A stretch of 4,474 nucleotides of DNA from a virus (Duplodnaviria > Heunggongvirae > Uroviricota > Caudoviricetes), in IMG/VR virus record IMGVR_UViG_2693429584_000015. One strand, 5' to 3'. How positions within the stretch are numbered: position 1 is the first letter of the stretch; each line of letters begins with the position of its first letter. The notes below the pieces were generated by a model. That model was not told where the DNA came from. It searched no databases and saw only the letters and a program-made list of their open reading frames with translations. Positions 672-4,097 of this stretch are shown piece after piece. Both the position numbers and the translations under genes were made by a program.

Positions 672-869
672 ATGCTAAAACAGCAGGATATGACCGAAAC
701 CGCCAGAGTGGTGTTTAATGAATTAAGCGTCACCGAACCGGCGACCGTCGAGGAAATTGCGCAGAACACTTATCTTTCACGCGAACGCTGCCAGTTAATA
801 CTGACCCAGCTTGTTATGGCGGGTCTGGCAGATTATCAGTTCGGTTGTTACAGACGCCTTCCTCAGTGA
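672..869 (+). CDS. Small (65 aa) hypothetical protein, winged-helix-like (FaeA/PapI-like pattern, tentative)
   Basis: ATG at 672 preceded by a purine-rich stretch (aaaagggaaaaagg). Sequence MLKQQDMTETARVVFNELSVTEPATVEEIAQNTYLSRERCQLILTQLVMAGLA... shows a helix-turn-helix-like 'T..EIA ... S..R...L..L...G' pattern. The longer GTG-initiated form from 549 was rejected because it starts inside the upstream terminator T-tract. Stop codon sits inside the downstream terminator hairpin. Confidence 0.45.
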   Translation: MLKQQDMTETARVVFNELSVTEPATVEEIAQNTYLSRERCQLILTQLVMAGLADYQFGCYRRLPQ

Positions 870-879
870 AGGCTTTTTT
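856..879 (+). terminator. Rho-independent terminator
   Basis: Perfect 6-bp stem gccttc (856-861) / gaaggc (868-873), 6-nt loop, then a 6-T run (874-879). Confidence 0.55.
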
Positions 880-1019: not shown

Positions 1020-2081
1020 ATGGCTAATACTGTAAAAATATCCAGTTGTAAGTTAATCAACGCTGATTGCCTGGAATTTATCCAGACCTTACCGGAAAAC
1101 TCTGTCGATCTGATAGTCACAGACCCGCCATACTTTAAAGTGAAGCCCGAGGGCTGGGATAACCAGTGGAAGGGCGACGATGATTACCTGAAGTGGCTGG
1201 ACCAGTGTCTGGCGCAGTTCTGGCGGGTGCTGAAACCTGCCGGAAGTCTTTACCTGTTCTGTGGTCATCGCCTGGCATCTGATATCGAAATCATGATGCG
1301 TGAACGCTTCAGTGTGCTGAACCATATTATCTGGGCGAAGCCGTCCGGACGCTGGAACGGATGCAACAAGGAAAGCCTGCGGGCGTATTTCCCCGCCACA
1401 GAGCGCATTCTGTTCGCGGAACATTATCAGGGGCCGTATCGTCCGAAAGATGCCGGGTATGCGGCGAAGGGCAGTGCACTGAAACAGCATGTGATGGCCC
1501 CGCTGATTTCTTACTTTCGTGATGCGCGTGCTGCTCTGGGGATAACGGCAAAACAGATTGCAGATGCCACAGGAAAGAAAAACATGGTGTCGCACTGGTT
1601 CAGTGCCAGTCAGTGGCAGCTGCCGAACGAAAGCGATTATCTGAAATTACAGGCCCTGTTTGCCCGGGTGGCAGAAGAGAAGCATCAGCGCGGTGAACTG
1701 GAATGGCCACACCACCAGCTGGTCAGCACATACAGTGAACTTAACCGGCAATATGCCAGCCTGCTGGAGGAGTACAAATCTTTGCGGCGTTATTTTTCTG
1801 TATCGGCTGCTGTTCCGTATACGGATGTCTGGATGTATAAGCCTGTACAGTATTATCCGGGCAAACACCCCTGTGAAAAACCGGCAGATATGTTGCGTCA
1901 GATAATAGAGGCCAGCAGTCGTCCGGGTGATTTGGTTGCCGACTTTTTTATGGGGTCAGGTTCCACGATAAAAGCCGCGCTTTCGCTTGGTCGTCGGGCA
2001 ATAGTTGAGCTTGAGGCTGAACGGTTTGAGCAGACGGTGAGCGAGATAAGAGAAATTCTGACGTGTAAAGCTGTTGACTGA
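1020..2081 (+). CDS. DNA methyltransferase, beta-class (N6-adenine or N4-cytosine), orphan (no adjacent restriction endonuclease)
   Basis: 353-aa ORF with an in-frame TGA at 1014-1016 fixing ATG 1020 as the first start. Catalytic motif IV 'DPPY' near the N-terminus (LIVTDPPYF) and AdoMet-binding motif I near the C-terminus (DLVADFFMGSGST); this IV-before-I order defines beta-class amino-MTases. 'HPCEKP' is typical of the class. Weak SD. Confidence 0.9.
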   Translation: MANTVKISSCKLINADCLEFIQTLPENSVDLIVTDPPYFKVKPEGWDNQWKGDDDYLKWLDQCLAQFWRVLKPAGSLYLFCGHRLASDIEIMMRERFSVLNHIIWAKPSGRWNGCNKESLRAYFPATERILFAEHYQGPYRPKDAGYAAKGSALKQHVMAPLISYFRDARAALGITAKQIADATGKKNMVSHWFSASQWQLPNESDYLKLQALFARVAEEKHQRGELEWPHHQLVSTYSELNRQYASLLEEYKSLRRYFSVSAAVPYTDVWMYKPVQYYPGKHPCEKPADMLRQIIEASSRPGDLVADFFMGSGSTIKAALSLGRRAIVELEAERFEQTVSEIREILTCKAVD

Positions 2082-2187
2082 TTAATCAATGCTTATTTTT
2101 TCATAAGTCTTGTTGCAATATATAAGTATGGGGTGTAAAGTTGTTCTCGAAAATAATCATGTTTTCTCACGAATCAGAGGGGGGATA

Positions 2188-2448
2188 ATGATTGAGGTTC
2201 GATGGACAAGGACAGCCCTGAAGCAGTTACTTCGTGTGGATACGCGGTATCGGCAGGCGATAAAGGATAAGGTCGGTGCGCTAAAGGATTTTCCTCTGGT
2301 AGCCATGGATTTTAAAAAGCTATCAGGGAGTGACAATCGATTCCGTTTGAGGGTCGGCGTGTACAGGGTTATTTTTGATGTTGAGGATGGTGATCCTGTT
2401 GTCCTGGATATTAAGGAAATTAAGCGCAGAAGCACAACCACATACTAA
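2188..2448 (+). CDS. Type II toxin, RelE/ParE superfamily (HigB-like gene order)
   Basis: 86-aa ORF; ATG 2188 preceded by a strong SD (gaGGGGGGataATG). N-terminus MIEVRWTRTALKQL and the core FRLRVGVYRVIFDVEDGDPVVLDIKEIKRR match the RelE/ParE fold signature. The upstream TTG extension in the ORF track (2110) was rejected. Followed 60 nt later by an HTH protein. Confidence 0.8.
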   Translation: MIEVRWTRTALKQLLRVDTRYRQAIKDKVGALKDFPLVAMDFKKLSGSDNRFRLRVGVYRVIFDVEDGDPVVLDIKEIKRRSTTTY

Positions 2449-2454
2449 GGGAGG

Positions 2455-2472
2455 CTGGCGGGAGACCGCCAG
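2455..2472 (+). promoter_or_regulatory. Intercistronic hairpin between toxin and antitoxin genes
   Basis: Perfect 7-bp inverted repeat ctggcgg (2455-2461) / ccgccag (2466-2472) with a GAGA loop; only 3 T's follow, so not a classic terminator. Could be an operator palindrome or an mRNA structure tuning antitoxin translation. Confidence 0.4.
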
Positions 2473-2508
2473 TTTGCTGAACGACATTCAATCGCGAAAG
2501 GCAATGAT

Positions 2509-2883
2509 ATGAAAAACAGTGTCCAGTTTATTACTGATAATGCCGGTGTTAGAACCGGGGTCATTATGTCAGTTGCTGAATATGAACGGCTGTTAAGTCT
2601 GGCAGATCCTGATGATGATTTTGAAAGCATCCAGTATGAAGCCGGAGAGCATGACAATGAAACAATACCTCATGAAGTAGTATCCATCATGATTGATGAT
2701 GATGTGTCATTGTTGGCAGCATGGCGGATTTACAGGCGAATGACTCAACAGGAAGTGGCGGAGCGCCTGGGGGTTAAACAGTCAGCCGTATCTCAGTTTG
2801 AGAGAGCAGGAGCTCCGCGAAAATCAACACTGGAAAAACTGGCTGAGATTTACAACTGCCGACCAAATCAGTTGGCTGATTAA
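2509..2883 (+). CDS. Type II antitoxin, two-domain: N-terminal antitoxin-like segment plus C-terminal HTH (XRE-family)
   Basis: 124-aa ORF; ATG 2509 with an upstream aaagg. C-terminal MTQQEVAERLGVKQSAVSQFERAG...STLEKLAEIY is a canonical XRE/Cro-type helix-turn-helix; the N-terminal part (VQFITDNAGVRTGVIMSVAEYERLL) resembles antitoxin N-domains. Acidic linker in between. Toxin-first order as in HigBA-type modules. Confidence 0.75.
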   Translation: MKNSVQFITDNAGVRTGVIMSVAEYERLLSLADPDDDFESIQYEAGEHDNETIPHEVVSIMIDDDVSLLAAWRIYRRMTQQEVAERLGVKQSAVSQFERAGAPRKSTLEKLAEIYNCRPNQLAD

Positions 2884-3028
2884 TCCTGAGTTTGGTTTTC
2901 GTAGCGATTGCATTTTTCTTATCTGCTTGCCGTTGTAGGTAGCGTGTATTTGCATGTTGTTTTGTAGTTAACCTTATGATTGGCTGAATTTTGTTCATCA
3001 ATAAAAAATATCCCTCTCTGATCTTTAA

Positions 3029-3054
3029 GGTTCGCTTTGGCGGACCTTTTTTTT
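3029..3054 (+). terminator. Rho-independent terminator (end of the TA transcript, candidate)
   Basis: Stem ggttcgc (3029-3035) / gcggacc (3040-3046) with one G-U wobble, loop tttg, then an 8-T run (3047-3054). Confidence 0.6.
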
Positions 3055-3190
3055 ATTTCCGCGCCACGCCCGGCGTACATCAAAAACCACAGAGCCTTTC
3101 AGGGGTGAGCTTACGGGATGGTCAGTGTGACTTTCTCTGTGGGCTGGTCACCCCCGGGCGCAGGCTCACCCACTAAAAGGAAAAGTCACG

Positions 3191-3622
3191 ATGTTTGGTA
3201 TTTTCAAAAAGAAAACCCGCAGAGCAGCAACTGAAATTAAAAAGTTTGAGAAACGCGATCTGGCACAGGCGGTTATTAATGCTGCCTACCTGGTGGCCTA
3301 TGCAGATGGTGAATGTGAGACTTCAGAGAAAGCGAAGATCGAACAGGTATTACGTAACCAGCCAGCATTGTCCGCATTTACGTCAGAAATTAATGCCATC
3401 AGTGCCACGATCACAGGTCAGCTTGACACCAATTTTAAAATTGGTCGTCGTGCAGCGTTGCGTGAAATTGAAGATGTGAAACACGATACGCGTGAAGCGG
3501 AAGATGTGCTGGATGTGGCGGTGGCCATTGCTGAAGCAGATGGTGAAATTGAGCCGGAAGAGCGTAAGGTTCTGGAAGAGATTGCTGGTGTTCTTGGCCT
3601 GCGACTGGAGAACCACCTGTGA
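3191..3622 (+). CDS. TerB-like (tellurite-resistance TerB domain family) protein
   Basis: 143-aa ORF; ATG 3191 with SD AGGA 9 nt upstream. Two helical repeats each carrying the 'A.ADG' signature (AAYLVAYADGECETSEKAKIEQVL and VAVAIAEADGEIEPEERKVLEEIAGVLGL) typical of TerB-domain proteins. Assigned by motif pattern, not by search. Confidence 0.7.
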   Translation: MFGIFKKKTRRAATEIKKFEKRDLAQAVINAAYLVAYADGECETSEKAKIEQVLRNQPALSAFTSEINAISATITGQLDTNFKIGRRAALREIEDVKHDTREAEDVLDVAVAIAEADGEIEPEERKVLEEIAGVLGLRLENHL

Positions 3623-3786
3623 CGGTAAAACTGCGTCTGGCCGCTGTGGCACTCCTGCTGTTTCTGGTGGTGATGGTGGATTTCACCAGCAGGATCATGT
3701 CGGTGCTGGCGGATGGAGTGCTGGTGGTCGGTATTGTGGTATTGCTGTGGCCGGTGATAAAAAGAAACAGCCTGCATAATGCTTGA
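3619..3786 (+). CDS. Small hydrophobic protein (55 aa, two predicted TM helices), translationally coupled to the TerB-like gene
   Basis: Absent from the supplied ORF track (under its size cut-off); found by manual translation. GTG 3619 overlaps the TerB TGA stop (3620-3622) in a GTGA arrangement, with GGAG (3607-3610) 8 nt upstream. Translation VTVKLRLAAVALLLFLVVMVDFTSRIMSVLADGVLVVGIVVLLWPVIKRNSLHNA has two hydrophobic segments and a basic C-terminus. CTG/GTG-rich codon use matches neighbouring genes. An internal ATG 3673 start would remove the first helix. Confidence 0.45.
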   Translation: MTVKLRLAAVALLLFLVVMVDFTSRIMSVLADGVLVVGIVVLLWPVIKRNSLHNA

Positions 3787-3951
3787 TTTTTTTGTTTACT
3801 GTTTATTAAAAATACTACTGCATGGTGAATCCCCCTGTGCGGAGGGGCAATCAGCAACCAGGTATATGTGATAATCGCGGATTCAGGTGCTGATACTGAA
3901 TTCACCGGGAGGCACCCGGCACCATGCAAGAAAAAGAATGTGCATGCAAAC

Positions 3952-3978
3952 ATGCCCCTCTCCGGAGGGGCATTTTTT
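3952..3978 (+). terminator. Rho-independent terminator (strong)
   Basis: Perfect 7-bp GC-rich stem gcccctc (3954-3960) / gaggggc (3965-3971), extendable by 2 bp, loop tccg, then a 6-T run (3973-3978). Confidence 0.65.
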
Positions 3979-3983
3979 ATGGG

Positions 3984-4010
3984 TAAAAAATGCCCGAATG
4001 GGTTCGGGCA
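3984..4010 (-). terminator. Rho-independent terminator on the minus strand (convergent with the 3952-3978 terminator)
   Basis: Perfect 8-bp stem tgcccgaa (3991-3998) / ttcgggca (4003-4010), 4-nt loop. The A6 run at 3985-3990 becomes a U-tract only for a minus-strand transcript. No minus-strand gene to the right is visible in the window. Confidence 0.45.
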
Positions 4011-4071
4011 ATAGCATGAGATACTGATATTGTTGTGTTGTTATCGTGTGGATTTTAACCAGGGTTTATCA

Positions 4072-4097
4072 GGCTGCGCAACTGCGTGGCCTTTTTT
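4072..4097 (+). terminator. Terminator-like hairpin plus T-run (weak)
   Basis: Stem ggctgcg (4072-4078) / cgtggcc (4085-4091) with two G-U wobbles, 6-nt loop, then a 6-T run (4092-4097). Confidence 0.35.

Follow-up and report, generated by a model that had tools for sequence, protein, structure and literature searches.

The viral DNA record IMGVR_UViG_2693429584_000015, a stretch of 4,474 nucleotides (nt) that we call the window throughout, carries two adjacent genes on one strand, the first encoding a protein of 86 amino acids (aa) and the second a protein of 124 aa. We consider it likely that this pair is a type II toxin-antitoxin (TA) module of higBA-type layout, that a lambdoid prophage carries it as a self-contained cargo cassette among its late genes, and that it works by the mechanism proposed below. 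The type II reading is drawn from the fact that the genes are adjacent, co-oriented and inherited together across taxa, in 27 of the 41 loci compared as well as on phages and plasmids. What could be established about the two proteins is their predicted folds, their conserved residues, the pairing of their genes and the genomic context in which the genes lie.

The gene pair and its distribution

Both open reading frames (ORFs) lie on the + strand in the same reading frame and are separated by exactly 60 nt (2449-2508). A sequence-only reading of this DNA had described a RelE/ParE-like toxin followed, across a 60-nt gap, by a larger antitoxin in which an acidic linker joins an antitoxin-like N-domain to an XRE-type helix-turn-helix (HTH), the whole sitting in a prophage cargo slot. 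The coordinates and the protein lengths agree with the order, the gap and the size difference. Homology search and structure prediction of both proteins gave a RelE-like fold for the first ORF and an HTH for the second. The results given below are in agreement with the remaining parts of that description: Pfam, profile search, structure model and Foldseek for the toxin, domain, profile and structural matches for an HTH in the C-terminal half of the antitoxin, family-wide Pfam matches for the N-domain, a poorly structured predicted segment for the linker, and the annotated neighbourhood between the Q and lysis genes for the cargo slot. A mechanical ORF call begins at a TTG at 2110 and yields 112 aa; this start was rejected because the starts of the homologues align with the Met at 2188. 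By their sequence matches both ORFs are genuine genes, since hits to Pfam and PHROG families and the presence of the exact toxin sequence on 901 recorded contigs rule out chance ORFs.

We scanned one genome per species for pairing and obtained 41 loci encoding a relative of the antitoxin. A toxin homologue was found immediately upstream and on the same strand in 27 of them, intact in 24 and truncated or frameshifted in three; at the other loci the antitoxin gene stands alone. The paired lineages include Photorhabdus, Xenorhabdus, Pantoea, Serratia, Yersinia, Neisseria, Rodentibacter and Actinobacillus, together with the group of Enterobacter, Superficieibacter and Scandinavium. Across loci the two genes are either spaced by gaps of 11-112 nt or overlap by 20-26 nt. 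The pair was also found on phages (16 records) and plasmids (27 records). It lies between Q and the lysis genes in Pseudomonas phage LESphi2, and between the lysis genes and the terminase in Pasteurella phage Pmp14. In both phages the late genes are encoded on the other strand, which argues for a promoter of its own.

The toxin

The first protein matched Pfam family PF05016 (ParE_toxin) with 33.2 bits against a cutoff of 23 (E 8e-8, residues 4-77). PF05016 was the only family matched in a Pfam scan at E<=1, with no HigB or HigB-like family among the hits. The protein also matched PHROG 1213, 'RelE-like toxin' (7e-21), and is labelled 'type II toxin-antitoxin system RelE family toxin' in RefSeq. 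The Pfam name does not settle the function of the toxin, because E. coli RelE is itself a member of PF05016 and the family holds mRNases as well as gyrase poisons (PMC11980606). A profile built from 17 family sequences and run against the sequences of the PDB matched RelE structures with E-values from 2.4e-9 to 1e-4, among them M. jannaschii RelE3 (3bpq_B, 2.4e-9), P. horikoshii aRelE (1wmi, 2e-6) and E. coli RelE (8e-6).

An AlphaFold2 (AF2) model made from 44 homologues, with a mean predicted local distance difference test score (pLDDT) of 87.7, shows a strand, two helices and a four-stranded sheet (elements H8-16, H19-34, E42-44, E51-56, E59-66 and E69-77), the small alpha/beta fold typical of the RelE/ParE superfamily. 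When this model was compared with the PDB by Foldseek, ranks 1-9 were all RelE chains, with TM values of 0.71-0.77. Identity of the window toxin to E. coli and archaeal RelE is 21-24%, and hhalign aligned it to E. coli RelE with 94.8% probability, pairing R53 with K52, R55 with R56, Y59 with Y60, R60 with R61, R80 with R81 and Y86 with Y87. R51 and R55 of the toxin also fall near the K52/K54 positions of RelE in the alignments. Across 44 sequences of the toxin family there is no variation at R53, R55, Y59, R60, R80 and R81, and Y86 is kept in at least 90% of them. Arg81 and Lys54 of RelE are the proposed acid-base pair (PMC5416850). The toxin ends at the Tyr aligned to Y87 and has no counterpart of residues 88-95 of E. 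coli RelE.

Judged by profiles and predicted structure, the toxin is RelE-like and not ParE-like. It is most likely a minimal RelE-type enzyme, that is, a ribosome-dependent mRNA endonuclease; we infer both its toxicity and its dependence on the ribosome.

One clade of the toxin family, represented by four loci from Enterobacter sp., Superficieibacter, Pseudescherichia and Scandinavium, continues past the conserved terminal Tyr with about 11-17 more C-terminal residues, one such extension being LHEEPVRYDSTVY. Here the two genes overlap by 20-26 nt at the start of the antitoxin gene, an arrangement that suggests translational coupling.

The antitoxin

An alignment of 34 homologues of the second protein contains three conserved blocks, namely an N-terminal block, a motif at the end of the linker and the HTH. 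The N-terminal block reads xQFIxDxxGxxxxVVLPIxEYERLL (residues 5-31). The linker is otherwise variable and ends in a DxETIP motif (DDETIPHEVV in the window), in which D49 and P54 are invariant. The AF2 model of the whole protein (pLDDT 85.3) divides it into the three parts listed in Table 1. In this model the helix formed by residues 55-63 packs onto a five-helix HTH domain with pLDDT above 90.

The HTH was identified by several searches. Pfam HTH_3 matched with 46.5 bits over residues 72-120 (2722-2868), and profile matches were obtained to the Xre regulator of ICEBs1, 434 repressor and Cro, HipB and P22 C2. Foldseek of the antitoxin model returned 434 Cro, P22 c2 and SinR, with a root-mean-square deviation of about 1.7 A over about 57 residues. 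The antitoxin matched PHROG 7241 over its full length (1.6e-50). No full-length structural analogue was found by Foldseek against PDB and BFVD, where the matches covered the HTH domain only. RefSeq labels the protein 'helix-turn-helix domain-containing protein', and elsewhere it is called 'transcriptional regulator'.

The N-terminal part resembles known antitoxins at the level of the family. All 23 family N-segments that were searched matched the RelB-like family PF18506 (best E 8.5e-9), and 12 of the 23 matched Phd/YefM (PF02604). We propose that residues 1-31 form a RelB-like/Phd-like module, and we infer that this part binds the toxin. The N-part with its linker defines a small family: among 1.84 billion proteins, only 10 cluster representatives matched at E<=1e-3.

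Candidate regulatory signals

A putative promoter with operator-like boxes precedes the toxin gene (Table 1). Its -35 and -10 hexamers are spaced by 17 nt and match the consensus at 8 of 12 positions, which is sub-consensus. The layout of a box, the -35 hexamer, a box in the spacer and the -10 hexamer is kept in position at the Photorhabdus, Xenorhabdus, Serratia and Actinobacillus loci. Over 12 lineages the ATAAG/CTTAT motif occurs 29 times upstream of the toxin gene, against 6.3 expected; the window has three copies against 0.39 expected, a number reached in 2 of 300 shuffles. Because the layout of the boxes is conserved, the motif is enriched and the recognition helix of the HTH is nearly invariant, these boxes are likely the operator of the antitoxin HTH. 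With this candidate promoter on one side and a terminator-like site on the other, the pair looks like a self-contained cassette.

A GC-rich hairpin lies between the two genes, starting 6 nt after the toxin stop codon. Its minimum free energy is -20.6 kcal/mol, with z = -4.7 against dinucleotide shuffles. Analogous hairpins of different sequence are found in the same place in Xenorhabdus (with a U-tract), Serratia, Actinobacillus and an Enterobacteriaceae metagenome-assembled genome, seven loci having such a post-stop hairpin. The one in Neisseria is weaker (z = -1.7), and none was found at the Photorhabdus, Pantoea and Yersinia loci. The hairpin could tune the ratio of toxin to antitoxin or the stability of the transcript. 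A role as operator was rejected for it, because its sequence varies among lineages while the recognition helix of the HTH is nearly invariant.

Two other features of this region were noted. A conserved element of the toxin leader, GATGCTCTTTAAAAATAGGGG, is present in Xenorhabdus, Photorhabdus, Serratia and Pantoea, and in the leader of the window (2143-2160) the copy has diverged to GTTGTTCTCGAAAATAA, with about 20 nt inserted between it and the Shine-Dalgarno sequence. Of the promoter-like matches in the window, the best lies on the - strand at 2336-2309, antisense within the toxin gene (TTGTCA-16-TAAAAT, 10 of 12 consensus positions). This site was dismissed as probably due to chance, since the scan gave 3 sites as compared to 5.7 in shuffled sequences.

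Table 1. Positions of the gene pair, its putative signals and the neighbouring features in the window
Feature	Positions	Strand	Details
65-aa ORF	672-869		Weak, sub-threshold Pfam matches of winged-helix type
Terminator after the 65-aa ORF	856-873		Terminator scan
DNA methyltransferase, N6/N4, orphan-looking	1020-2081		PADLOC MTase_II, 4.7e-155
Putative own promoter with operator boxes	2090-2141	+	Read from sequence; function presumed
Box GCTTAT	2090-2095	+	
Box CATAAG	2102-2107	+	
Putative -35, TTGCAA	2113-2118	+	
Box TATAAG	2122-2127	+	In the promoter spacer
Putative -10, TAAAGT	2136-2141	+	
Toxin Shine-Dalgarno, GAGGGGGG	2176-2183	+	Strong; read from sequence
Toxin ORF	ATG 2188 to TAA 2448	+	86 aa
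Predicted active-site residues of the toxin	R53 2344-2346, R55, Y59, R60 2365-2367, R80 2425-2427, R81, Y86 2443-2445	+	
Intercistronic GC-rich hairpin, CTGGCGG-gaga-CCGCCAG	2455-2472	+	Perfect 7-bp inverted repeat, then TTTGCT
Antitoxin ORF	ATG 2509 to TAA 2883	+	124 aa
Antitoxin residues 1-31	2509-2601	+	Beta-hairpin (6-9, 15-19) and helix (22-31); AF2 pLDDT 72-88
Antitoxin residues 32-54, acidic linker (ADPDDDFESIQYEAGEHDNETIP)	2602-2670	+	Without regular structure in AF2; pLDDT ~65-72
Antitoxin residues 55-124	2671-2883	+	Extra helix (55-63) and XRE/Cro-type HTH; pLDDT 91-97
Intrinsic terminator-like site	3027-3058	+	9-bp stem, then TTTTTTATTT; terminator scan
TerB-family protein	3191-3622		Overlaps the DUF3927 gene by 4 nt
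DUF3927/TciB-like small membrane protein	3619-3786		

Prophage context

At 100% identity the window matches both the chromosome of E. coli O39:NM F8704-2 and prophage PPyecE_EH1910. The annotation of the neighbourhood is that of an E. coli lambdoid prophage, with replication genes, antiterminator Q, a small hypothetical gene, the DNA methyltransferase, the toxin and the HTH antitoxin in that order, followed by TerB, DUF3927, a SASA esterase, holin, lysozyme, terminase and capsid genes. The pair is thus cargo in the accessory slot that separates antiterminator Q from the lysis genes, a slot occupied in Stx phages by the Shiga toxin genes. No nuclease gene was found near the methyltransferase.

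DNA of the window was found at high identity in 11 of 5426 complete E. coli genomes. Three places matching the TA DNA are present in NZ_CP050998.1, the E. coli O39:NM F8704-2 genome, presumably on three related prophages. Identical copies would cross-neutralise, and this would weaken an addiction role of any single prophage.

Two known prophage small RNAs (sRNAs) are encoded farther downstream in the window. STnc100 is on the + strand at 3794-3984 (144.7 bits against a gathering score of 47), and AgvB, an anti-GcvB sRNA, is on the - strand at 3985-4046 (96.5 bits against 56). The model of AsxR, which is related to AgvB, gave a sub-threshold match at the same spot. Terminator-like hairpins at 3952-3973, 4010-3991 and 4071-4092 flank both sRNAs.

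Proposed mechanism and alternative explanations

We propose that free toxin would most likely bind the ribosomal A site and cut mRNA during translation, so that translation is arrested. Cutting would be carried out by a basic/tyrosine active site made of R53/R55, R60, R80 and Y86. The antitoxin would most likely be a dimeric repressor. Its C-terminal XRE HTH would bind the ATAAG/CTTAT boxes, which overlap the pair's own putative promoter, and its RelB/Phd-like beta-hairpin-helix at the N-terminus, together with the acidic linker, would block the toxin by wrapping around its basic face. The biological role of the pair may be retention of the prophage, exclusion of other phages, or both.

Several observations speak against this scheme. 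The N-segment of the window antitoxin itself reached only 14.5 bits with PF18506, where the cutoff is 27, and 13.6 bits with Phd/YefM, where the cutoff is 29.8. A profile of the N-segment matched nothing significantly among all PDB sequences (best E 0.79). In the toxin, phmmer places a gap differently from hhalign and sets R53 opposite K54 of RelE, so that the alignment at K52/K54 differs between methods. A consensus promoter scan of the window listed no promoter on the + strand, the 8 of 12 matches of the putative promoter being below its threshold. In the searchable literature, neither PF18506 nor the RefSeq accessions nor RelE/HTH prophage modules led to a study of this family. Finally, full-length antitoxin homologues with a conserved N-domain persist without a partner. 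Such solo loci, with no adjacent toxin gene, were found in H. influenzae (two), Superficieibacter (two), Photorhabdus (five), Xenorhabdus (two), Buttiauxella (one) and Pantoea (one).

The solo copies raise the question whether the second protein is mainly a transcription regulator of phage or host genes, with the toxin an inactive or dispensable passenger, so that the two would not be a working TA pair. The solo Buttiauxella gene directly follows a methyltransferase gene very similar to that of the window, and the database names of the antitoxin speak at most of a transcriptional regulator. However, weak matches (E of about 3-4) point to short toxin remnants ahead of two solo genes, one of 15 aa in Superficieibacter and one of 11 aa in H. 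influenzae, and three loci have a truncated or frameshifted toxin gene. By comparison of these sequences, solo copies and truncated toxins are the usual pattern of toxin decay in TA modules and not evidence of independent origin; the solo homologues may be orphan antitoxins. The window toxin moreover retains every residue that is invariant in its family, and the identical protein is present on the 901 contigs mentioned above. We therefore regard a mere regulator with a passenger toxin as very unlikely. Another alternative would make the toxin a ParE-type poison of DNA gyrase, with the pair blocking replication and inducing the SOS response. Its sole Pfam match is a family named ParE_toxin, ParE structures are among its Foldseek matches (6xrw, the first, at rank 10 and 6x0a at rank 21), and it is labelled 'plasmid stabilization protein' in UniRef and in one phage record. 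But PF05016 also holds E. coli RelE, as noted above, and the profile matches to ParE structures were non-significant (E 1.2 for 6x0a and 1.6 for 6xrw) as compared to 2.4e-9 for RelE. On the basis of the profile scores, the conserved Arg and Tyr positions of the RelE active site and a C-terminus that stops at the Y87 equivalent without an extension, we rejected the gyrase poison, which is highly improbable.

A further alternative concerns the role and is compatible with a RelE mechanism. The main function of the pair could be abortive infection or superinfection exclusion on behalf of the lysogen, in which infection by another phage depletes or displaces the antitoxin and frees the RelE-type toxin. 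The cargo slot adjoins accessory genes (the orphan methyltransferase, TerB and the TciB-like DUF3927 protein), and the same family occupies late-region accessory slots in unrelated Pasteurella and Pseudomonas phages. Defence has been shown for the related toxin-first HigB/HTH-antitoxin systems PD-lambda-2 (PMC9519451) and HigBAC (PMC11980606). On the other hand, PADLOC-DB 2.0 assigned the toxin to no family and the antitoxin only to generic HTH models (HTH_VI, RmrA and capH), and the module has no third component that could act as sensor. The family is found equally on plasmids and chromosomes, as are ordinary addiction-type modules, and three copies in one genome fit hitch-hiking on related prophages. 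The suggestion in the sequence-only reading, that the function could be defence and not simple addiction, is neither borne out nor contradicted by these results. Defence as the main role is possible, though we find it doubtful. Our preferred reading remains a type II TA module with a RelE-type toxin and an HTH antitoxin.

A broader idea, to which we give little credence, is that this antitoxin family neutralises a minimal RelE in a manner not yet characterised structurally, that its solo copies act in trans and that the hairpin sets the ratio of the two products. Such neutralisation may use a RelB/Phd-like hairpin-helix and an acidic DxETIP segment grafted onto an XRE HTH. Toxin-less antitoxin copies in prophages or chromosomes could then act in trans as anti-toxin, or counter-defence, factors.

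Significance

The pair is already largely annotated in public genomes, and its layout is known from higBA-type systems. It changes little for the field: a very large and well-studied superfamily gains another module in which a RelE-type toxin is paired with an HTH antitoxin. The Pfam label 'ParE' is misleading for the window toxin, for which the evidence points to an mRNA-cutting RelE-type protein, and the second protein can be given a new annotation, that of an antitoxin whose N-terminal module is RelB-like. Family members sit in late-region accessory slots of phages from three host genera. The pair is a convenient candidate for asking whether simple prophage RelE modules stabilise the prophage or exclude competitors.

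Comparison with known systems

The sequence-only reading had called the gene order reversed relative to relBE and parDE. The toxin gene does come first, but this is not unusual, because a toxin gene upstream of an HTH antitoxin gene is the defining layout of higBA-type systems (PMC5416850, PMC11980606), and the window pair, with its XRE-type antitoxin, has this organisation. Like V. cholerae higBA-2 (PMC11980606), the pair resembles higBA systems by its layout and not by the family of its toxin.

The founding higBA module, HigB-HigA of Rts1/Proteus vulgaris, shares the toxin-first operon and the HTH antitoxin (PMC12266136, PMC11980606). HigB of this module is a ribosome-dependent mRNase, and the module is autoregulated through promoter repeats (PMC12266136, PMC11980606). 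P. vulgaris HigB differs from the window toxin in belonging to another Pfam family (HigB-like) and in having another active site, and it appeared only at ranks 45-50 in the Foldseek search. The best profile and structural matches of the toxin are E. coli K-12 RelE, M. jannaschii RelE3 (3BPQ) and P. horikoshii aRelE (1WMI). These proteins have the same catalytic positions, and the archaeal ones are of similar size (85-90 aa). In the E. coli and archaeal systems, however, the toxin gene follows the antitoxin gene, and the RelB antitoxins are ribbon-helix-helix proteins (E. coli) or are without a DNA-binding HTH.

The relE-yiaG modules also place a RelE-family toxin upstream, and the C-terminal XRE HTH of their antitoxin resembles that of HigA2 (PMC11980606). 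The N-terminal part of YiaG is predicted to contact the toxin (PMC11980606). Their toxins are PF_RelE proteins with disordered N-terminal extensions and the N-part of YiaG consists of two helices, whereas in the window pair the toxin is a minimal PF05016 protein and the antitoxin is predicted to have a beta-hairpin and a helix in its N-part.

By analogy, the closest studied counterpart in mechanism is HigB2/HigA2 of V. cholerae. A sequence relationship to VcHigB2 or VcHigA2 was not detected, neither protein being among the listed PDB profile matches or the top 50 of Foldseek. In this system the toxin gene comes first as well, and its RelE-like product has an Arg/Lys/Tyr active site of the RelE type (PMC5416850). 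VcHigA2 is modular, as is proposed for the window antitoxin, its N-part neutralising the toxin and its C-terminal XRE HTH dimerising and binding DNA (PMC5416850). The N-part of VcHigA2 is disordered and becomes a helix followed by a strand on binding, whereas that of the window antitoxin is predicted to be a beta-hairpin followed by a helix, with RelB-like/Phd-like signals and then a 23-residue acidic linker. HigA2 displaces the C-terminal helix alpha3 of VcHigB2; the window toxin, at 86 aa, is shorter and ends before the segment equivalent to RelE 88-95.

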